This document shows positions 1,378 through 17,116 of a stretch of 64,000 nt of DNA, one piece after another. Position 1 is the first letter of the stretch. The number at the start of each line of letters is the position of its first letter. Location: positions 1,696,001-1,760,000 of the forward strand of contig OZ220089.1 of the NCBI GenBank assembly GCA_964291625.2, written 5' to 3'. The notes beneath the pieces are model-generated. The model saw only the letters and a list, made by a program, of their open reading frames with translations. It was not told the origin of the DNA and made no database searches. The stretch comes from Candidatus Latescibacterota bacterium. GTDB lineage: Bacteria > Latescibacterota > UBA2968 > UBA8231. Both the position numbers and the translations under genes were made by a program.

Positions 1378-2211
1378 TCACGGCTCGATGGCCCGGCGCA
1401 TGGCGTCCACGGGCGGCCGCACCCCGGTCCAGATCTCGAAGGACCGGGCGCCCTGGTGGACCAGCATCCCCAGCCCGTCCAGGGCCCGGGCGCCAGCGGC
1501 CAGAGCCTGCTCCAGCAGACGCGTGCGCAGCGGCTTGTAGACGATGTCGAGGACGGCCATGCCGTCGTGGAGGACGCTCCCGTCGCCCAGGGGCGAGGAC
1601 CCGGCCTCCGGCTCCATGCCGATGGAGGTGGCGTTGATCACCAGTCCCGCCTCGCGCAGGGAGCCGCTCTCCGCCAGCGGCGCCACCCGCACCCGGCCGC
1701 CATCGTCCATGGCCTCGGCCAGGCTCTCGGCCCGGGAGGCGGTGCGGTTCAGCAGGATCACCTCCTCCACCTCCCCGCGGGAGAGCAGGGCGTGGAGGAC
1801 GGCCTTCGCCGCCCCCCCGGCGCCTAGGAGGGCGACCTTCGGCGGCAGCCGCTCCAGGCCGCCCTCGCGCAGACTGGCCAGCACCCCGCAGGCGTCGGTG
1901 TTGTGCCCCACCAGCCGGCCGTCCCGGTGGTCGATGGTGTTCACCGCGCCGATGGCCCGCGCCTCGGGGGCGACCTCGTCGAGGAAGGAGAGGACCGCCT
2001 GCTTGTGGGGCACGGTGACGTTGAGGCCGCGGATCCCGAGGTGGCGCATGGCCGCGCCCACATGGGCGGCGCCCTCCGGCGGCACCGGGAAGGCGACGTA
2101 CACGTAGTCGAGACCGGTGGCGGCCAGGGCCGCGTTGTGCATCGCCGGGGACGCCGAGTGGGTCACCGGGTGGCCGATGACGCCCAGGATCCCGGTCCGC
2201 CCGGAGATCAA
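1378..2211 (-). CDS. aroE: Shikimate dehydrogenase
   Basis: Motifs GHPVTHSASPAMHN, GLNVTVPHK, GAVNT, GHNTD, LGAGGAA, NRT, NATSIGM, GLGMLVHQG; probable TTG start overlapping the upstream TGA. Confidence 0.93.
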   Translation of the reverse strand: MISGRTGILGVIGHPVTHSASPAMHNAALAATGLDYVYVAFPVPPEGAAHVGAAMRHLGIRGLNVTVPHKQAVLSFLDEVAPEARAIGAVNTIDHRDGRLVGHNTDACGVLASLREGGLERLPPKVALLGAGGAAKAVLHALLSRGEVEEVILLNRTASRAESLAEAMDDGGRVRVAPLAESGSLREAGLVINATSIGMEPEAGSSPLGDGSVLHDGMAVLDIVYKPLRTRLLEQALAAGARALDGLGMLVHQGARSFEIWTGVRPPVDAMRRAIEP

Positions 2212-2348
2212 CCGAGGAGATCCTCCAGGAACTGGTCGGCGATCTCGAGGGACTCGCTCCAGCTGGCCCCGTAGAGGACCTTGATCATCAGGACGCCGCC
2301 GCCGAAGACCACGGCGCCGAGCACCAGCAACCGCAACATCGCTCTCAT
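2208..2348 (-). CDS. Small single-pass membrane protein (~46 aa)
   Basis: MRAMLRLLVLGAVVFGGGVLMIKVLYGASWSESLEIADQFLEDLLG; start and stop overlap the flanking genes, suggesting translational coupling. Confidence 0.6.
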   Translation of the reverse strand: MRAMLRLLVLGAVVFGGGVLMIKVLYGASWSESLEIADQFLEDLLG

Positions 2349-3646
2349 CACGCATTCTCCCTGGCCCTTGGGGCCTGCAACCCGTCGAGTAGATCGAAGA
2401 ACCCGGGGAAGGAGGCGTCGACGCACCCGGCGTCGTCGATCTCCATCTCCCCGTGGGCGACGAGACCGGCCACGGCGAAGGCCTGCACCAGTCCGGCGTG
2501 GCCCCGGCCCTCGATGCGCTCCCCCTTGAGCGGCCGCCCGCCCTCGATGACCACGCCCTCCGCATACTCGCCGACCTTGGCCTCGACCCGCCGCAACTGG
2601 CCGACGAGGTGGTCGACGAAGTCGTACTCGCCCCGGCGCAGCGACTCGATGTCGCGGATGATGAACTCCCCCTCCGTCTGGGTCGCCAGCACCGCCAGCA
2701 GGGCCACGTGCTCCAGGAGCTCCCGGGCCCGGCGGTCGGCCACCCGGGTCGCCTTGAGCTTGCCGGAGCCCTTGATCAGCAGATCGACGCTGCCGTCGTC
2801 GGCCCCGGCGATCTCCAGCTCGCCGCCGATCTGGCGCACGAGGTCGACGAAGAGGCGGTTGCCGGGGCGCACCATCACCCGGCGCACGGCGACCTCCGCG
2901 CGGCGTACGGCCAGGGCCGCCACCACCACGGGGAGGGCGCCGGCCAGGTCCCCGGGGACGTCCACGTCCAGGGCCTCCGGCGCCGAGCCCGGCGACAGGG
3001 TCAGGCTGCGCACCGGGGGATCGCCTTCGCGGCGGCTCTCCACCGGGACGCCGCGTTCCTTCCACGGCGCCTCGACGCGGTCGCGGCAGGAGGCCGGCTC
3101 GCGCACCACCGTCGGCCCTTCGGCGAAGAGGCCCGCCGTCAGCAGGCCCAGCTTCACCGATGCCGGCAGGTCCGCCGCCTCGTGGTCGCCGCCGCCGGGG
3201 GCCGAACCGGCCTCCAGCCGAAGGACGCCGTCGGCCTCCGCGGCGGCCGTGACCCCGGCGGGCGCCAGCAGCCGCAGGAGCTGATCCGCCCGGTCCCGCA
3301 CCGCCTCGGGGACCCGCACGCGGCCGGGCAAGGGCTGCCGCGCCAGGATCGCCAGGGCCGGCAGCACCGCCTCCTCCGAGCCTTCCAGATCGAGGACATC
3401 GTCCGCCGGCTCGAGCCCCGCCAGTCCGCGGCCGTCGACGCGGAAGCCGCGGTCCTCGCCCTCGACGCCGACGCCCAGCCGGCGCAGGACGTCCACCGTC
3501 CCGGCCGCCCCGGGGGGCACGCCGCCGATGCGGCTGGTTCCCTCGGAGACGGCCGCCATCCACAGGGCCTGGATCGCCCGGTCGCGCTCGCCCGGCACGC
3601 GGACCTCGCCCCTCAGGCGCGCCGCCCTCGAGACGGTGCGCACCAT
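2348..3646 (-). CDS. EPSP synthase (AroA)-fold protein with a degenerate active site
   Basis: Starts MVRTVSRAARLRGEVRVPG; colinear with class II AroA (ASVK.GLL.AGL.AEG.T.V.EP, VPGD, C-terminal SFPGFF.LL) and lies in the tyrA-aroA-aroE context, but catalytic motifs are substituted. Confidence 0.8.
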   Translation of the reverse strand: MVRTVSRAARLRGEVRVPGERDRAIQALWMAAVSEGTSRIGGVPPGAAGTVDVLRRLGVGVEGEDRGFRVDGRGLAGLEPADDVLDLEGSEEAVLPALAILARQPLPGRVRVPEAVRDRADQLLRLLAPAGVTAAAEADGVLRLEAGSAPGGGDHEAADLPASVKLGLLTAGLFAEGPTVVREPASCRDRVEAPWKERGVPVESRREGDPPVRSLTLSPGSAPEALDVDVPGDLAGALPVVVAALAVRRAEVAVRRVMVRPGNRLFVDLVRQIGGELEIAGADDGSVDLLIKGSGKLKATRVADRRARELLEHVALLAVLATQTEGEFIIRDIESLRRGEYDFVDHLVGQLRRVEAKVGEYAEGVVIEGGRPLKGERIEGRGHAGLVQAFAVAGLVAHGEMEIDDAGCVDASFPGFFDLLDGLQAPRARENA

Positions 3647-7883: not shown

Positions 7884-8446
7884 TCAATCCCGCGCAAGGA
7901 AGTTGCCCAGCAGGCGCTGGCCCTCGGCGGTGAGGATCGACTCCGGGTGGAACTGCACGCCCTCGACGTCCAGCTCGCGGTGGCGCAGCCCCATGACGAT
8001 CCCGTCCTCTGTCTCGGCGACGACCTCCAGGCAGTCGGGCAGCGACTCGCGGTCGACGATCAGCGAGTGGTAGCGGGTGGCCACGAAGGGGTTGGGCAGG
8101 CCGGCGTAGATCCCCCCGCCGTGGTGGTGGATCTCCGATGTCTTGCCGTGCATGACGTACGGAGCGCGGGTGACGACGCCGCCGAAGGCCTGGCCGATCG
8201 ACTGGTGCCCGAGGCAGACGCCGAGGATGGGGACCTGGCCGGCGAAGCGGTTCACCACCTCGATGGAGATGCCGGCCACGTCGGGCGTGCACGGCCCGGG
8301 GGAGATGACGATGCGCTCCGGCGCCAGCCCGGCGATTTCGTCGGTGGTGACGCGGTCGTTGCGGTACACGGACAGCTCGGCGCCGAGCTCGCCCAGGTAC
8401 TGCACGAGGTTGTAGGTGAAGGAATCGTAGTTGTCGATCACCAGGA

Positions 8447-8450
<4 letters not shown>
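7884..8450 (-). CDS. trpG: Anthranilate synthase component II (glutamine amidotransferase)
   Basis: [34 protein letters not shown]. Confidence 0.95.
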
Positions 8451-9994
<1,544 letters not shown>

Positions 9995-10063
9995 CTCAGT
10001 TGCTCCGCTCGTTGCGGACGCGGTTCACCGGCAGCGGAAACGGCAAGAGCCCGTTGGGCACGG

Positions 10064-10099
10064 AAAAGGCCGCGAGCGCTGTCGGTGCGCCCGCGGCCT
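10064..10099 (-). terminator. Attenuator terminator hairpin of the trp leader
   Basis: Minus strand GGCCGCGGGCGC-ACCGACA-GCGCTCGCGGCC followed by TTTT, between the leader peptide and trpE. Confidence 0.85.
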
Positions 10100-10128
10100 G
10101 TGTGGTTTCCGTCTGCCGGTCACCCGCC

Positions 10129-10215
10129 TTACGGGTGGACGCACCTCTGTCCTGTCTCGTAGGACCAGAAGCGCCACCACCATCGGCGCGGGTTGTCGGT
10201 GCGATTGTATGTCAT
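10129..10215 (-). CDS. trpL: trp operon leader peptide (28 aa)
   Basis: MTYNRTDNPRRWWWRFWSYETGQRCVHP, with three tandem Trp codons plus a fourth; GGAG RBS upstream; followed by antiterminator/terminator segments and trpE. Confidence 0.88.
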   Translation of the reverse strand: MTYNRTDNPRRWWWRFWSYETGQRCVHP

Positions 10216-10252
10216 TTTGTGCGTGCTCCGTGCGCTTCGAATCGAGTCTTCG

Positions 10253-10281
10253 ATACTAAGGACCGCGCCCACCGGTGTCAA
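10253..10281 (-). promoter_or_regulatory. sigma70-type promoter of the trp operon
   Basis: Minus strand TTGACA (10281-10276), 17-bp spacer, TAGTAT (10258-10253), ~40 nt upstream of the trpL ATG. Confidence 0.8.
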
Positions 10282-10335
10282 CCGGTGCGTATCTTTGAGC
10301 GCCGTCGGCAGCGGATCACCCACGAGAGGTCATCC

Positions 10336-10557
10336 ATGACCACCATCACAGTCCGTGTACCGGCCGGGCTCCGTGGAATGCTCGACAAGGCCTCTGCGGA
10401 GCTGGGGCGCACGCGGTCCGACATCGTCCGGCAGGCGCTGGAACGTTATCTGGAGGACCTCGACGACCTCACCCTTGCCGAGGAACGGCTCCGCGATCCG
10501 ACCGATCCGGTCCTGGAGTGGGAGCCCGTGAGGCAGAAGCTACTCGGACCCGAATAA
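10336..10557 (+). CDS. Ribbon-helix-helix (CopG/RelB-like) antitoxin-type protein, with no intact toxin gene
   Basis: MTTITVRVPAGLRGMLDKASAELGRTRSDIVRQALERYLEDLDD...; beta-strand/helix/helix pattern with acidic tail; GAGAGG RBS. Confidence 0.8.
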   Translation: MTTITVRVPAGLRGMLDKASAELGRTRSDIVRQALERYLEDLDDLTLAEERLRDPTDPVLEWEPVRQKLLGPE

Positions 10558-10581
10558 GGCGTCCTGCACCGCGGGATTGTC

Positions 10582-11073
10582 CTAAGCCGAAAGCGCTGCC
10601 TTGAACCGCTCGACAACGCCCTCGTTGATGTGGAGTGGATTCAGCCTCTGCATCCGGCGTGCGACAGCCAGTGCACGGCGCCTCGTGAGGGCGCCGCCAG
10701 CAACCAGGTCCACCATGAGGCCGAGGCCGAATCTCGTCTTCACCCCGTGACGTCTGCAGAGACGCCGGAGCGCACCGTCATTCGTGACGCAAGTCCAGCC
10801 CTCCTCGCGACACGCGACCAGGCAGAGGCAATCATTGAAGGAAACACCGGACTCGACCTCGGACGCCTGCGCCAACCGCTCTGTTTCGACGGCGACAACT
10901 TCCATGCCGAGTTGCGTGCACTGCGCCGCCCCGAGGCCCCGCACCTCCTCCAGCACGGGAGCCAGGACTACCAGCCGGCCCATATGGGCCGCCACGAGCT
11001 CCAGGACTTCCAACGCCGCGTCCCGGTAATCGATGAGGACATCTGCATCGGCGAGAAGCACCGTTTCGACCAT
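10582..11073 (-). CDS. PIN-domain (VapC-like) nuclease
   Basis: Acidic PIN residues: LADADVLID, VLEEV, SFNDCL, VTNDGALR. Confidence 0.75.
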   Translation of the reverse strand: MVETVLLADADVLIDYRDAALEVLELVAAHMGRLVVLAPVLEEVRGLGAAQCTQLGMEVVAVETERLAQASEVESGVSFNDCLCLVACREEGWTCVTNDGALRRLCRRHGVKTRFGLGLMVDLVAGGALTRRRALAVARRMQRLNPLHINEGVVERFKAALSA

Positions 11074-11079
11074 CTTGAT

Positions 11080-12210
11080 CTACCCCGCCCACTCACGCGC
11101 CTGACTCCTCATCTCTTCCCGGGTCAGGCCCAGGATCTCGGCTGCCCTTCCCATTGAGAGGTTGCCCTGCTCAAGGGCCTGCCGCACCAGCCGCGAGAGT
11201 CGGTTCTCGATGAAGTCATGCCTGGAGAGACCATCGGGCTCGCCCGAGCGGCTCCAGTTCCAAGCGAACTCGCTCTTCTCAAGGGCCAGAGGCTCCTGGG
11301 TTCTTCGCAGGGTCTTGCCGAAACGGCCCTGATGCTGCCGCTGGAAGGCGCCCCAGATACTCGATGTTTCGCGCTCCGTCTCCACGAGCCGGTATAGCAC
11401 GGTCTTGTAACTCACTCGAAAAATACGCTTGACCTTGAGGACCCGGACGAGGAGCGGGTGTCCCCGGGTCTCCTCCCACCGTGGAGCGAAGGCGGTCTCC
11501 GGCATCAGGAACTGGCTCGCAAAAGCGTCTGCCTCCCGCTCCGTAGCCAACGAGGGTTCGGTAGCCTCCCGCTGGTACTCGGCCGGATGGAGCAACAGGT
11601 GACCTAGTTCATGCACCGCGGTGAAGATCCAGCGCTCTACTGAGATCCGATCCCAGGTATTGACCACCACCGCCGGACCTCCATCGGCCTCCGCCACGCT
11701 CAACCCGAAGAAGGAATCGCTCTTCTTGTCGAGAAGCAGGAGCTTCACCCCGTTCTCCTCAAGCAACCCACAGATGTCTCGCACCGGCTCTTCTTGCCCG
11801 ATTCCAATGGCTCCACGGGCTGCCCGTGCGGTTTCAACTGGACTCCCAGATCGAGTGCCCACAGGCCGGAACCGGAAGGCGCACAACTCCCCCAGATCAG
11901 ACTCGATCTGGCTATAGGCCTCTAGCCACCTGGAAACCTCTGCCAGAATCTGGGCACGCCCGAGAACGCGGGCACTGGCCCGAAAACGCACGGTCTCCAG
12001 AACCCGCACCGGCGAGATGAGGTCGCCCACCGGAACCTGCAGTGCTCTCCCCAAGGCGGAGAGACTCCGCGACCTCGGTACAACCGCACCCCGCTCGATT
12101 TTCCCAAGCGCGATCCTAGAGATTCCTGCCCTCTCGGCGAGCTTCTCCTGGGTCAACCCCCGGTCTAGTCGCAACCGGGCGACATTCGCCGCAATGTGCT
12201 CACCAGCCAT
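11080..12210 (-). CDS. XRE HTH / ImmA-IrrE Zn-metallopeptidase fusion
   Basis: N-terminal HTH (RLDRGLTQEKLAERAGISRIALGKIERG); HExxH motif FTAVHELGHLLLH; EREADAFASQFLMP; C-terminal LSMGRAAEILGL. Confidence 0.92.
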   Translation of the reverse strand: MAGEHIAANVARLRLDRGLTQEKLAERAGISRIALGKIERGAVVPRSRSLSALGRALQVPVGDLISPVRVLETVRFRASARVLGRAQILAEVSRWLEAYSQIESDLGELCAFRFRPVGTRSGSPVETARAARGAIGIGQEEPVRDICGLLEENGVKLLLLDKKSDSFFGLSVAEADGGPAVVVNTWDRISVERWIFTAVHELGHLLLHPAEYQREATEPSLATEREADAFASQFLMPETAFAPRWEETRGHPLLVRVLKVKRIFRVSYKTVLYRLVETERETSSIWGAFQRQHQGRFGKTLRRTQEPLALEKSEFAWNWSRSGEPDGLSRHDFIENRLSRLVRQALEQGNLSMGRAAEILGLTREEMRSQAREWAG

Positions 12211-12228
12211 CGTCTTGCCTCCGCGAAC

Positions 12229-12266
12229 TTGACAAGGTAACCACAGATCCCATATTTGTCAATATG
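12229..12266. promoter_or_regulatory. Overlapping divergent sigma70 promoters with a palindromic operator
   Basis: Plus strand TTGACA 12229-12234 with CATATT at 12251-12256; minus strand TTGACA 12262-12257, 17 bp, TACCTT 12239-12234; palindrome CATATT-N4-AATATG at 12251-12266. Confidence 0.7.
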
Positions 12267-12345
12267 ATATCTTTACTTCCTCCCCTCACGGCGCCAAGCG
12301 GGCAAGGACCAGGGACCCACCCGGGCGCCAAGGAGAATCGTCACA

Positions 12346-13452
12346 GTGAAGCCAAGATTGACCCTCTACCCGCTCGGTAACGCAGACTCTTGCCTGATCG
12401 AGCTTACTGATGGGCGCCTTCTCCTCATGGACTTCTCCGCAGCGCGAGGAGACGACCCAGAAGACCTCCGTATTGACCTTCCAGATGCCCTTCGGGAGGA
12501 CCTTGGCACTCGCAGGGATGTGGACGTGCTAGCGATCTCTCACTTGGACGAGGATCACTACGGCGGAGTCAGCGACCTCTTCTATCTTGACCATGCGGCC
12601 AAGTACCAGAGCGACGACCGGATCAGAATCCGTGAACTCTGGGTGCCCGCCGCCGTCATCGTCGAGGAGGGACTCGACGCCACGGAGGCCAAGGTCATTC
12701 GGGCGGAGGCACGGTACCGGCTCAAGGAGGGCAAGGGCATCCGCGTCTACTCACGCCCCGAGGCCCTTGAAGAATGGCTCAACCAGCAGGGCCTCAACCT
12801 CACAGACCGAGCGCACCTCATCACCGATGCCGGATGTGTCGTGCCTGGCTTCTCGTACGCATCCGGTGGAGTAGAAATGTTTGTTCACTCCCCGTTTGCC
12901 GAGGCGGCTTCTGACGGCCGCGCCATCGTGAGGAATTCCTCCTCACTTGCACTGCAAGCAACGTTTAAGGTTGGGGACCGATTCACCCGTGTTCTCTTTG
13001 CCGCCGATTTACACCACGAGGACCTCGCCGGAGTTGTCCGCGTGACCAAAGCACACGCTAACGACGAGCGTCTCCAATGCGATGTCGTCAAGCTGCCTCA
13101 TCACTGTAGCTATCTCTCCCTCGCCCCCGAAAAGGGAACCATTTCGACCCAGCCGGTTCCAGAGGTCGAGTGGCTCTACCAGAACCAGGGTCAATCCAGA
13201 GCGATCCTGGTGTCGTCCAGCGACCCCATTCCCCCCGAGGACACTATTGATCCTCCTCATCGCCAGGCAGCTAAGTACTATGCAACAGTGGCCGGCCTTC
13301 TCCGAGGAGAGTTTGCCGTCACGATGGAGCATCCCAAGCAGAGCGCGCCCGAGCGGCTCATCATCGAGATTGGCAACCTCGGCGCCTCCCTAAAGAAGAG
13401 CACCATAGTCGGTGGCCCACTCCTGAGCCGCGCGGCACCGCGGGCCGGTTGA
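12346..13452 (+). CDS. ComEC-like metallo-beta-lactamase-fold hydrolase with a C-terminal Gly tail
   Basis: GNADS, ISHLDEDH (HxDxDH), FAADL, KLPHHCS; ends ...SRAAPRAG; AGGAG RBS and GTG start. Confidence 0.85.
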   Translation: MKPRLTLYPLGNADSCLIELTDGRLLLMDFSAARGDDPEDLRIDLPDALREDLGTRRDVDVLAISHLDEDHYGGVSDLFYLDHAAKYQSDDRIRIRELWVPAAVIVEEGLDATEAKVIRAEARYRLKEGKGIRVYSRPEALEEWLNQQGLNLTDRAHLITDAGCVVPGFSYASGGVEMFVHSPFAEAASDGRAIVRNSSSLALQATFKVGDRFTRVLFAADLHHEDLAGVVRVTKAHANDERLQCDVVKLPHHCSYLSLAPEKGTISTQPVPEVEWLYQNQGQSRAILVSSSDPIPPEDTIDPPHRQAAKYYATVAGLLRGEFAVTMEHPKQSAPERLIIEIGNLGASLKKSTIVGGPLLSRAAPRAG

Positions 13453-15665
13453 TGACCAAGGACTGCTGGCTGTCCCCACAGGGAGTCCTGTGCAAGGACA
13501 GCACCGCCCTTCCTCCCCGTGCTCGTGAGTTGGCGGAGCGCTTGGCAGCAAGCGAGATTCCTTTTGCACGTCTCCTATCCCTCTCAGAGTCCAACGGTAC
13601 GGGAATCGTCACCCTCGAGGTCGATGTGGAACTCGCACAAGATCGGGTCTACGACATCCGTCCCCGTGAGCGGATTTCAGTCGAATTCTGCCACGATGAT
13701 GCGCAAGCGCCGGAGGTTCTTGCCCTACGTAGTTCCTTTCCCCTTGTACCACATCTAAACTTACGTCCTTCCGAGCTCCCCAGAAGTCTTTGTCTCTCTG
13801 CGGCCCCTTGGAGTGAGCTGCGTACTTGGTGGACACCGGGTCGTTTCGTAACGGACCTGCGCGCGTGGCTTGAGGCAACGGCACGGGGTGATCTACATGG
13901 GGACGATCAGCCCCTAGAGCCACTACTCCTAGGTACAGGTGTGCCACTCATTCTACCGACCGAGATCAGGGAAGGAGCAAGACCGATTCGCCTTGACGTA
14001 CTCGTCGTCAAGACACCCGAGATGGAACGGCCCGTCCTCGTCGCACGAGACCCGGAGGACATCCAAGACTTTGAGCGGGCCTACGCCATCGAGTCAATTG
14101 CCACTGTTCTCGTCGGCACCGCGCAACAGCACGGAATCATCGCACGTACGCCACGTACACTCGCACAGCTCCATGACCTCCTTACTCCCGCCCGTATTGA
14201 CACGCTTGGGGCCCTGATGTCTCGACTTGAGGATTGGCGACAAGACGACGAACTACTTGCCCGAAAGCCCATTCTAATCACAGTTCTCCCTAAAGTCCGA
14301 AGCAACGGCCAGGCCGTGGAGGCCACGGACATTTTCGCCTTCTCCATCGAGGAAACAGTCACGACACTTGGGGAAAAGCTCGGTCTATGGCAGATAACAG
14401 GGGGACACGCCGGCTTTCTGATCCCCCGCGCTACCCCTAACGCTGACGCGGTCCCGCTGGTATGCCTACACCCTGTGTCCCAGCTCTCTATGGGAACCGC
14501 GGCACAGGTGACCGGACGAGGCCCCGACCTACGCAAAGCAGTGGCCGTGGGACAAGGGGCTCTCGGCTCCCAGGTGGTCTCAAATTTGATTCGCACTGGG
14601 TTCGGCTCATGGACCCTTATTGATCACGATGTACTCTTGCCCCACAACCTCGCGCGCCATGCCCTCATCGGCCGAAGCCCGGGCTTCCCGAAGGCTCAGC
14701 ATATGGCAGTCGCCTTGACGGATACAGTTCAGGACTCCGTGGTGCAGGCTCTGGTCTGTGATGTGCTCAATCCAAGAGACAAGTCGGAGGATCTCACTGC
14801 GGCTCTGAGTGAGGCGGATGTCGTGTTCGATTTCTCCGCGTCTATCGCGGTGGCACGCCATCTAGCCGATGATACTCTTGTGAAAGCACGCCGACTCTCG
14901 ATCTTCTTGGGTCCAAGCGGCAGATATCTCGTGATACTTGCCGAGGACGCCAGCCGGACCGTAACCCTCCATGAGTTGGAGGCACAGTACTACCGCCTGC
15001 TCATCCAAACGGAGAGTCTTCACGACTTCTACCTAGATGAGGCCATATCACTTCGATACGGCGGCTCCTGCGCCGACATCTCACTTCACATCCCTCAGGA
15101 TCGTGTGGGACTACACGCGGGGATAGCGACTGGCGCAGTACAGCGCCTTACAGGAGAAGGGTTCATTTCCGTTTGGCACCTGACAGATGAACTCTCTGTT
15201 CAGCGACACTGCCTATCGGTTGCGGTCAGCCAATGGTTTGAGGGATCGAACTGGACGATAGGTATCGACTCCCGTCTCGAGGGTCACCTCCTGACGCTTC
15301 GTCGCAATGCTCTGCCATGTGAGACTGGGGGTGTTTTGGTCGGGGTGGTGGACACGCACCGGAAGACTACTCTAGTTGTGGATGCACTACCGGCACCCCC
15401 GGATAGCGAAGAGTGGCCAACCGCATTCATCCGCGGCTCAGTCGGGCTTCGCGAACGCGTGGAGAGAATCACAGAGTGGACAGGTCAGGCCGTACACTAC
15501 ATAGGAGAGTGGCATTCGCATCCTTCAGGCAGCTCGTTGGGAATGAGTCCTGACGATGAGCAGGTCCTACGGTTCGTGGCCAAGCACATGCGATCAGACG
15601 GACTTCCGGGAATCGTCTTGATCGTCGGAGACACAGGGGTTCAGTGCCACATCGGAGATAGCTAG
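13452..15665 (+). CDS. Prokaryotic E2 - E1(ThiF) - JAB triple fusion (Cap2/Cap3-like)
   Basis: E2: PHLN...SLCL; E1: VGQGALGS, IDHD..LPHNLARH, DFSAS, GSC; JAB: ETGGVLVG...YIGEWHSHP...SPDD; TGATG overlap with the MBL gene. Confidence 0.92.
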   Translation: MTKDCWLSPQGVLCKDSTALPPRARELAERLAASEIPFARLLSLSESNGTGIVTLEVDVELAQDRVYDIRPRERISVEFCHDDAQAPEVLALRSSFPLVPHLNLRPSELPRSLCLSAAPWSELRTWWTPGRFVTDLRAWLEATARGDLHGDDQPLEPLLLGTGVPLILPTEIREGARPIRLDVLVVKTPEMERPVLVARDPEDIQDFERAYAIESIATVLVGTAQQHGIIARTPRTLAQLHDLLTPARIDTLGALMSRLEDWRQDDELLARKPILITVLPKVRSNGQAVEATDIFAFSIEETVTTLGEKLGLWQITGGHAGFLIPRATPNADAVPLVCLHPVSQLSMGTAAQVTGRGPDLRKAVAVGQGALGSQVVSNLIRTGFGSWTLIDHDVLLPHNLARHALIGRSPGFPKAQHMAVALTDTVQDSVVQALVCDVLNPRDKSEDLTAALSEADVVFDFSASIAVARHLADDTLVKARRLSIFLGPSGRYLVILAEDASRTVTLHELEAQYYRLLIQTESLHDFYLDEAISLRYGGSCADISLHIPQDRVGLHAGIATGAVQRLTGEGFISVWHLTDELSVQRHCLSVAVSQWFEGSNWTIGIDSRLEGHLLTLRRNALPCETGGVLVGVVDTHRKTTLVVDALPAPPDSEEWPTAFIRGSVGLRERVERITEWTGQAVHYIGEWHSHPSGSSLGMSPDDEQVLRFVAKHMRSDGLPGIVLIVGDTGVQCHIGDS

Positions 15666-15686
15666 AGGATCGTCTGCGGGGTGCTG

Positions 15687-17000
15687 ATGTACCATCTTGG
15701 ACTTGCGTTGTCTGGAGGGGGTTCTCGCGCCGCCGCATTCCATTGTGGAACGGTCACAGCTCTTTCCGAGCTGCATCTAGTTGACGAGATAGACGTTGTT
15801 TCTACGGTATCTGGGGGCTCTCTCTTTGGTGCTGCTTGGATGGCAGCAAAGATTGGGGGACAGAGCTTGGGGGAGTTCACCCGGAATATGCAGGCAGAAC
15901 TGTCCCGCGGGTTCATCGTTAGGTCAATCAGGCCGTCCCTGCTCCGCGTGTTGATCCCTACTGCATCGTACTCTCGAACTCACCTGCTCGCAGAGACCTT
16001 TGATCGCATCCTGTTCCAGGGACTTACCCTCGGGCGTCTCCCTGAACGCCCGGCTCTGTGCATAAACACGACAGTATTGAATACGGGCCAGATAGCGAAA
16101 TTGACCCGGGATGGATTCTCGGCTTGGGGAATCGCGGTCCCTGGAGGCGACCCCCCCCATGTGGTGCCTTGGGCAAACTTTCCCTTGGCACGTGCCGTCG
16201 CCGCCTCTGCAGCGTTCCCCATCGGCCTGCCACCTCTAACCCTAGGGCTAAGGGACTTCCCACGCGGGACCGAATTCAGAGGCTCGCTGGCTGGGGCGAA
16301 GGGAATCTGCCTTACTGACGGTGGTGTGCTTGAGAACCTTGGAATTCAGACTCTCTTGAAGAGCCGGCGCTATGCCTCGTGGAACCTCGTTGTGAGTGAT
16401 GCGGGTGTTCATGACCGACCTTGGCGGAATGGAGGGATTGTCGACTCAGCCAGGGGTTTCGGCATGTGGGTCTTGAGCGGACAGACTCTTGGTCGGCTCA
16501 TGCTGTTGATGAACGACAAGCAGAACCGGTGGGCAAGGCACGAGGTCCACAACGAGTTGATTCGCTCGTGGCTCGCTGATGAATTGAGGCGGAGCTCCAG
16601 CGCTTCTCTCAAGGGTGTAGCGAGCTACTTGGACCACGAACCAAACCTGCGACGACGGGCACTCCTGTTTGTACGCGTGGCCCAGAGTTGGAACTCCTTC
16701 TTTGCTTCAATCCCGAGATGGAGACTCGTGGAGCTCGCCGAACGTTCTGGAGGGTCCGAATCCGCGATACCTTCCAATGACGATCCCGCACGCATCGTAG
16801 ACTACCTGGAAGGGGTAGGCTGCGACCTCTCCGCGGCGGTGCACTATCATGGCCAACTTGGAGGAGACAGTAGTGCGGAAAGACTGAACCGGGTGAGGAC
16901 TGGATTCTCCTCCTTGTCCCCAGAGACCATTCGGCGCCTTGCAGCACATGCAGCTTGGCAAGTCCACGCGGCACACTCGGTCTATTTCCCTAAGGGCTGA
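15687..17000 (+). CDS. Patatin-like phospholipase
   Basis: LALSGGGSRA oxyanion loop, STVSGGS nucleophile, ASAAFP, LTDGGV.ENLG; alternative GTG start at 15681. Confidence 0.88.
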   Translation: MYHLGLALSGGGSRAAAFHCGTVTALSELHLVDEIDVVSTVSGGSLFGAAWMAAKIGGQSLGEFTRNMQAELSRGFIVRSIRPSLLRVLIPTASYSRTHLLAETFDRILFQGLTLGRLPERPALCINTTVLNTGQIAKLTRDGFSAWGIAVPGGDPPHVVPWANFPLARAVAASAAFPIGLPPLTLGLRDFPRGTEFRGSLAGAKGICLTDGGVLENLGIQTLLKSRRYASWNLVVSDAGVHDRPWRNGGIVDSARGFGMWVLSGQTLGRLMLLMNDKQNRWARHEVHNELIRSWLADELRRSSSASLKGVASYLDHEPNLRRRALLFVRVAQSWNSFFASIPRWRLVELAERSGGSESAIPSNDDPARIVDYLEGVGCDLSAAVHYHGQLGGDSSAERLNRVRTGFSSLSPETIRRLAAHAAWQVHAAHSVYFPKG

Positions 17001-17116
17001 GCGACTGGATCGGTTGGGGGAGCTTGACCTCCCTCCCCCCCACCTCGCCGTTCACTTAGAGCCCCCAACGATGGGCACGTCGCCCACCCGGTGCGAGTTT
17101 GGCCCTCTCGAAACGT

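Follow-up and report, generated by a model that had tools for sequence, protein, structure and literature searches.

A 6A-MBL operon in an uncultured Candidatus Latescibacterota lineage and the conserved Gly-ending tail of its MBL-fold enzyme, a predicted substrate of the adjacent E2-E1-JAB ligase

Can a complete hydrolase be used by a bacterium in the way that ubiquitin is used, as a protein modifier attached through its C-terminus? The question is raised by an operon in the window, the 64,000-nucleotide stretch of contig OZ220089.1 from a Candidatus Latescibacterota bacterium analysed here, in which a gene for an MBL-fold protein is followed by one for a fused E2-E1-JAB protein. The initial annotation proposed that the adjacent E1 takes the tail of the MBL protein as its substrate, and that the enzyme as a whole acts as the 'ubiquitin', is ligated to host or phage proteins and is released by the fused JAB. 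Judged by its gene content and by profile models, the locus is a complete operon of the named 6A-MBL anti-phage system, in which a divergently transcribed HTH-M78 regulator gene accompanies genes for an MBL-fold hydrolase, a 'cap2_3' protein (E2-E1-JAB) and a patatin phospholipase (table). The MBL protein matches the NCBIfam equivalog NF058524.1 ('6A-MBL_enzyme') at 351.4 bits (cut-off 220, E 5.2e-105) and the E2-E1-JAB protein matches NF058523.1 ('cap2_3') at 604.8 bits (cut-off 320, E 2.2e-181). Since both equivalog cut-offs are exceeded and the gene order is that of operon type 6a, we assign the operon to 6A-MBL. The 2006 study of Iyer, Burroughs and Aravind defines type 6a as E2-E1-JAB beside a specialised MBL protein, 'usually with two genes'. 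The names 6A-MBL and 6A_MBL are found in later papers, which credit van den Berg et al. 2024 with its anti-phage activity.

Table. Features of the 6A-MBL operon (positions in the window)
Feature	Position	Strand	Description	Basis
HTH-M78 regulator	11080..12210	-	376 aa; XRE-type HTH + peptidase M78 (ImmA/IrrE) fusion	Pfam
Imperfect inverted repeat	12245..12272		within 135-bp divergent promoter region	repeat search
6A-MBL MBL-fold enzyme	12346..13452	+	368 aa	NCBIfam NF058524.1
Disordered C-terminal tail, residues 351-368	13396..13449	+	ends P365-R366-A367-G368	AlphaFold2 + conservation
E2-E1-JAB 'cap2_3' protein	13452..15665	+		NCBIfam NF058523.1; Pfam Prok-E2_A, ThiF, Prok-JAB
Patatin-like phospholipase	15681..17000	+	439 aa	Pfam Patatin 8.7e-20

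The junction between the two core genes is as it was first described. Read directly, 13390-13452 runs in frame from CTA to CCG CGG GCC GGT TGA and encodes the C-terminus LKKSTIVGGPLLSRAAPRAG-stop, and the reported overlap of this stop with the ligase start is equally present, with TGA at 13450-13452 and ATG at 13452-13454 sharing one base in TGATG. The ORF listing puts the ligase start one codon upstream of this ATG, at TTG 13449, for a protein of 738 aa as against 737 aa, and ligase residues are numbered here from that TTG. At the other end of the MBL gene, GTG 12346 (or a nearby start) is taken as the true start because homologues align from residue 1-4 and N12, A13, D14, D29 and D40 are invariant; the annotated protein P0001, which has 308 aa and 100% identity across 84% of the query, lacks about the first 60 residues. 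The pairing of the genes is nearly constant. Of the 75 related loci with over 300 nt of sequence beyond the MBL gene, 74 have the ligase gene immediately 3' of it on the same strand, and the single miss, L062, has just 431 nt beyond its MBL gene.

The body of the MBL protein has the features of a metal-dependent hydrolase. Its AlphaFold2 model, built on 56 homologues, has a mean pLDDT of 91.1 and is ordered to about residue 350. Lactamase_B is a weak Pfam match; the metal motif HxDxDH is present as H66, D68, D70 and H71, and these four residues together with H181, D221, H252 and H253 do not vary among the 56 sequences of alignment A1, which share 52-79% identity with the window protein; they presumably serve in catalysis or metal binding, as assigned by position and motif. 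The best solved folds are the beta-lactamase-like domain of ComEC (9ic4, 1.1e-14) and then the Pce esterase (2bib and 1wra, about 8e-11), and by sequence the body also matches MBL modules of other defence systems, namely LmuA, RTasMBL and Avs1a in PADLOC. The metal motif, the likeness to the ComEC and Pce folds and the matches to defence modules favour nuclease or phosphodiesterase chemistry. Both AlphaFold2 and the structure search return an MBL alpha-beta/beta-alpha sandwich and no beta-grasp fold in this protein, which, by analogy with known conjugation systems, would be modifier-like in action yet not a Ubl.

Relatives of this body occur in several other arrangements, and in a minority of homologues other domains take the place of the tail, which counts against the conjugation reading. 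In the homologues P0017 and P0023 (59-71% identical; P0147, P0165, P0177 and P0198 are also listed) the PRAG tail is missing and the chain runs on into a hydrophobic helix and a further domain of about 130 aa, and another group of about 500 aa bears a different C-terminal domain. P0125 (660 aa), whose domains were read by eye, fuses the MBL body to an E2-like region containing GNLCLG and then to a SEC-C-type Cys/His motif; this architecture would link the 'modifier' covalently to an E2, unlike the window operon. Some loci hold a second, distinct MBL-fold gene beside the 6A-MBL pair (L012 at 9437-10531; the Hymenobacter plasmid L099 at 2160-3320 and 8391-9818). The Hymenobacter plasmid also encodes an upstream WYL-domain regulator and a 578-aa 'Mov34/MPN' protein, with a small opposite-strand gene between MBL and that protein.

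Beyond the ordered body lies the tail, which had been described as flexible. The model agrees: order ends near residue 350, the tail has a pLDDT of about 49 (block means of 49-50 over residues 351-368) and residues 354-363 fall below 50. An alignment of homologue C-termini, the comparison put forward with the original proposal, finds the terminal glycine conserved. Alignment A1 shows no variation at R366 and G368 and a conservation of at least 90% at P365 and A367, and among the best 120 MBL homologues the chain ends in G in 83 and in AG in 70. Across 82 related loci (2 from genomes and 80 from metagenomes, some of them near-duplicates of one another), the motif x-P-[RK]-[AVS]-G lies within the last 12 residues in 75; glycine is the last residue in 41 of these and is followed by 1-6 further residues in the remaining 34. 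The genome-contig scan, run with the single MBL protein, gave two true relatives and four weak N-terminal MBL matches (L003-L006), and these four are excluded from all counts. Seven loci depart from the motif: L002 has ARRAG, L081 has PARAG, L040 ends in ...GGGRFA, and L060, L062, L083 and L084 have QRVGFG plus 1-3 residues. The 75 motif loci encode it in 64 distinct 15-nt versions, in which every codon for Pro (4), Arg (6), Ala (4) and Gly (4) appears. Since every synonymous codon is used, the constraint lies at the level of the peptide; a ribosome-binding site or the gene junction would not account for it.

The same ending can be followed on plasmids and among more distant proteins. The MBL protein of G. 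oxydans pGOX1, one of the founders of type 6a, ends ...AAPRAGRWR, and the copy on the Hymenobacter plasmid ends ...APPRAGRGLN. Among 150 listed 50%-identity cluster representatives, 33-55% identical to the window MBL protein, 64 are at least 340 aa long, and [RK][AVSG]G stands at most 7 residues from the end in 34 of the 64; about a dozen more have an R-F/M/Y/H/Q-G end by eye, two end in GRFA or NRYA, and the rest carry unrelated C-terminal additions. Two loci were considered as tail-less controls and discarded. In L095 (G104:C10, 3876-9600) a diverged 6A-MBL operon is interrupted by an opposite-strand 458-aa IS-type transposase ORF between the MBL and ligase genes; the operon is broken, the MBL C-terminus has been replaced by an end without R-x-G, and a membrane-protein third gene follows the ligase. 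L096 (G134) carries a QRVGFG-type tail and a ligase-patatin fusion.

The downstream protein has the make-up claimed for it at the outset, as Pfam places Prok-E2_A, ThiF and Prok-JAB in that order. The E2 covers about residues 1-175 (Cys115) and is followed by a linker, the E1 adenylation domain at about 356-600 (Cys541) and the JAB/JAMM domain at about 600-738 (E625, H689-S-H691, D703). Throughout 37 aligned E2-E1-JAB proteins, 29-71% identical to that of the window, C115, G368/G370, D392, R403, K415, D461 and C541 are invariant, as are E625, H689, S690, H691 and D703. From the motifs, we take Cys115 to be the E2 cysteine, G368/G370 to bind the nucleotide, Cys541 to be the cysteine of the crossover loop and the last five residues to belong to the JAMM site. 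The ligase model has a pLDDT of 82.1, with the loop 531-546 that holds Cys541 below 50; such low confidence is as expected for an E1 crossover loop. A Foldseek search with this model returns full-length E. cloacae Cap2 best (7to3_A, 5.1e-25), then Atg7. By sequence, phmmer against the PDB gives Cap2 at 1.5e-9, with Cap2 and MoeB as the only solved relatives, and PADLOC gives E1-E2 at 1.4e-29 and JAB at 1.8e-20. A complex prediction run without controls, in which a monomeric ligase fragment (176-600) and the full MBL protein were supplied as alignments together with ATP, reached a best score of 0.18 against a mark of 0.32, which speaks on neither side of the binding question.

A further line of evidence comes from loci in which a similar MBL body carries another tail. 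The clearest case is L040, whose MBL protein is 54% identical in its body to that of the window over residues 5-357, ends in GGGRFA and is encoded beside a 653-aa E2-E1 protein and a separate JAB gene. This E2-E1 matches E. cloacae Cap2 (7to3) at 3.7e-83, compared with 8.4e-9 for the window ligase in the matching comparison. According to the Cap2 study, GRFA is the C-terminus of E. cloacae CdnD, and the peptide was crystallised as an AMP conjugate in the Cap2 adenylation site (10.1101/2022.03.31.486616). A Q/E-R-V-G-F-G tail, in turn, stands beside a diverged E2-E1-JAB (L060) or beside E2-E1-JAB-patatin fusions (L083, L084 and L096); it is also present in L062, where no ligase lies within the 431 nt downstream. 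By these comparisons, the tail thus follows the type of ligase. A similar MBL body with a different tail and a different ligase is what would be expected if the ligase recognises the tail, and these natural tail swaps, GRFA with Cap2 and QRVGFG with diverged and patatin-fused ligases, amount to ready-made specificity tests. The distant representatives P0159 and P0176 have the Cap2/CdnD-like ends GRFA and NRYA, which suggests that the pairing with a true Cap2 seen in L040 may be a recurring sub-type.

Taken together, these observations make it quite probable, by analogy with Cap2, that the adjacent ligase attaches the whole MBL enzyme to other proteins via its Gly-ending tail. The glycine is conserved, the constraint is on the peptide, extensions of 1-6 residues occur beyond it, the tail co-varies with the ligase, the ligase residues are intact, the ORF list of the window operon has no beta-grasp gene and Cap2 is the nearest solved relative. 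The original claim, that the tail is a substrate of the adjacent E1 and the whole enzyme acts as 'ubiquitin', is to this extent supported by comparison, through the conserved glycine, the protein-level constraint, the extensions and the pairing of tail and ligase. Adenylation, thioester relay, targets and any effect on activity are proposed by analogy, and the same holds for what would be modified ('host or phage proteins') and for a release by the JAB, both of which are modelled on Cap2/Cap3. The disordered 18-residue tail would reach the E1 adenylation site, where Gly368 of the MBL protein would be adenylated; it would next form a thioester with the crossover-loop Cys541 and be handed to Cys115 of the E2, after which the entire MBL enzyme would be ligated to a target through its C-terminus. 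The fused JAB would reverse this ligation. In homologues with 1-6 residues past the glycine, the JAB would first trim the pre-protein; the window protein stops exactly at Gly, so that trimming is unnecessary. Conjugation may prime or relocate the hydrolase, and the patatin, or the membrane protein that replaces it elsewhere, would be the killing effector.

Several other explanations of the conserved tail can be weighed against this one. A constraint at the DNA level, imposed at the gene junction by a ribosome-binding site or by translational coupling, would suit the TGATG overlap of the window and has practically no probability left: the codon counts, with all synonymous codons at the four motif positions, refute it, and the junction has no fixed geometry, since the genes may overlap or stand up to about 12 nt apart and the motif may be followed by 1-6 extra codons. 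It is very unlikely, too, that the ligase conjugates something else, such as a host ThiS/MoaD-type protein or itself, with the MBL protein as a regulated effector or target only. Such a substrate would accord with the MBL fold, which is not beta-grasp, and with the use of 'the available ThiS/MoaD' that Iyer 2006 proposed for operons without a Ubl. It leaves unexplained, however, the invariant, disordered, Gly-ending tail, the extensions of 1-6 residues of the kind found in pre-modifiers and the GRFA tail beside a true Cap2 in L040. Moreover, what Cap2, the closest relative with a solved structure, conjugates is its partner from the operon rather than a Ubl (10.1101/2022.03.31.486616).

The tail could also be kept for a role other than conjugation, as an autoinhibitory plug of the MBL active site, as a site at which cleavage by the JAB alone activates the enzyme, or as a degradation tag, and to these possibilities together we give only a slim chance. 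Processing is made plausible by the extensions past glycine in 34 of 75 loci, and hydrolase effectors often need restraint. Against this, an invariant E1 adenylation site and both catalytic cysteines would be without a substrate; the window protein ends at Gly, leaving a JAB nothing to cleave; and AlphaFold2 leaves the low-confidence tail undocked, contrary to an autoinhibitory plug. A point against the main reading itself is that the MBL enzyme could be a plain effector whose tail serves another regulatory use, as its hydrolase fold, the ComEC nuclease domain as its nearest structure and the presence of the same fold in LmuA, RTasMBL and Avs1a would allow. The conjugation of the MBL enzyme by its neighbour remains the preferred explanation.

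What the modified enzyme might act upon, or with, is bound up with the third gene of the operon. In the window this gene starts 16 nt after the ligase gene and encodes a Patatin domain at residues 8-225 (Pfam). It has no match among the PADLOC families and hence is not CapV-like by sequence; for residues 230-439, Pfam and PADLOC show nothing past the patatin domain, and the ESM Atlas gives unnamed clusters and no structure. A census was taken of the 44 loci in which the ligase is complete and followed by at least 900 nt. A patatin gene lies directly downstream of the ligase in 11 and is fused to it in 2, and in 16 the next gene encodes a 2-4-pass membrane protein of one of two families, as judged by a crude hydropathy test; a patatin or multi-pass membrane protein is thus present in 29/44. 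The other 15 have something else or nothing directly downstream, and among these BLAST still locates a patatin on the same strand in L081 and convergent ones in L037 and L050, and picks up fragments of patatin genes in L051 and L053. Ligase-patatin fusions occur in three independent records (L083, L084 and L096), and a patatin is also present on G. oxydans pGOX1. Given the 15/44 loci without a recognisable third gene directly downstream, the patatin may not be essential.

CBASS and Pycsar use patatins and small membrane proteins as effectors. By analogy, the window patatin is probably a membrane-attacking effector or third component, and such a third gene of 6A-MBL loci is possibly new. Its presence in two thirds of loci raises the question of whether the MBL protein is itself the effector or an upstream signal-maker. 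It is conceivable, if rather doubtful, that 6A-MBL is a three-part CBASS-like pathway, in which the conjugation-primed MBL hydrolase would make an activating product by cleavage instead of cyclisation and so switch on a membrane effector. That the effector would be the patatin in the window and the 2-4-pass membrane protein elsewhere, with the MBL protein as signalling enzyme and not as killer, is a suggestion just as tentative. The low rating follows from the many loci without a recognisable third gene directly downstream. In an alternative version, the patatin or membrane protein would itself be the conjugation target, tethering the hydrolase at the membrane.

Upstream, the divergent gene encodes a protein with Pfam matches to HTH_3 (3e-12) and Peptidase_M78 (6.5e-16) and PADLOC matches to RmrA (1.6e-35), capP (6.1e-16) and capH (5.5e-7), and resembles CapH and CapP joined in one chain. 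The regulator is conserved upstream of the operon in L001, L002 and L007; a similar HTH-M78 gene lies upstream of the L040 operon and an M78 gene upstream of that of L096. The inverted repeat in the promoter region (12-nt arms, 83% complementary, 4 nt spacer) is a candidate operator for the HTH regulator. The GC content of the region is 57-65% across 10-17 kb against 70-75% on both flanks, the MBL gene turns up in 8 of the phylum's 168 genomes whereas the 9 other genomes of the genus lack it, and an MBL homologue is found in 73 plasmid records, 55 of them mobilizable or conjugative. The low GC, the patchy spread and the mobile plasmids fit a mobile defence island. At its left edge are two ORFs, one for a ribbon-helix-helix protein (10339-10557, +) and one for a PIN-domain protein (10582-11073, -), which are convergent and therefore not a standard toxin-antitoxin operon.

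Much of this framework was already in place. The operon type has been known since 2006, the defence system bears a name and NCBI has curated models for it. The idea that the MBL protein is conjugated is also in print, in a 2024 preprint which states that the enzyme of MBL pathways undergoes conjugation. What the present comparison adds to this is modest, namely the statistics of the tail, the natural tail swaps and the frequency of a third gene. In the literature searched, the primary 6A-MBL paper aside, we found neither a description of the PRAG tail of the MBL protein nor a link between a patatin and the 6A-MBL operon. The sharply defined P-R-A-G end would be the recognition element, and since about half of the family makes it in pre-protein form, the JAB is predicted to have a part in processing. 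It was van den Berg et al. (Cell Host Microbe, 2024) who reportedly gave the anti-phage system its name and tested it.

Compared with 6A-MBL (type 6a), the window has the same two core genes in the same order, and adds a patatin gene and a fused HTH-M78 regulator in a high-GC, uncultured lineage that has Latescibacterota MAGs as its nearest named relatives. The ComEC domain and Pce, the best structural matches of the MBL body, are just 12-17% identical to it and have neither a conjugation tail nor a link to a ligase. The closest parallel in design is type II CBASS, which consists of a CD-NTase, Cap2 (E2-E1), Cap3 (JAB) and an effector. The window ligase is nearest to Cap2, and the operon has a Cap3-like JAB, a CapH/CapP-like regulator and a patatin (a membrane protein in other loci) in the effector slot. 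The Cap2 substrate carries a disordered C-terminal tail whose last residue is small and conserved (10.1101/2022.03.31.486616), and the tail of the window MBL protein answers to this description. Unlike in type II CBASS, however, E2, E1 and JAB are joined in one chain, and the patatin matches no PADLOC model of a CBASS effector. The ORFs, Pfam and PADLOC give no CD-NTase (cGAS/DncV-like) in 10000-17100, where an MBL-fold protein partners the ligase instead; with no cyclic-nucleotide synthase evident in the window, any signal would need another origin.

Other systems with Cap2 and Cap3 extend the comparison. TIR enzymes with a conserved Gly-ending tail beside Cap2/Cap3 follow the same conjugation logic, according to a recent preprint (10.64898/2025.12.03.692087), and Pycsar and MBL have been named together as Cap2/Cap3 pathways (PMC11601596). 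The conjugated cyclase or TIR of type II Pycsar and of Thoeris with Cap2/Cap3 has a known signal chemistry, whereas the window enzyme is an MBL-fold hydrolase. Bil and Bub operons share the logic of E1, E2 and JAB with the window operon, and their JAB pre-processes a C-terminal extension to expose the glycine (PMC10557695). These systems, in contrast, use a true beta-grasp Ubl with E1 and E2 of canonical type, whereas in the window a 40-kDa enzyme would serve as the modifier of an Atg7/Cap2-like ligase.
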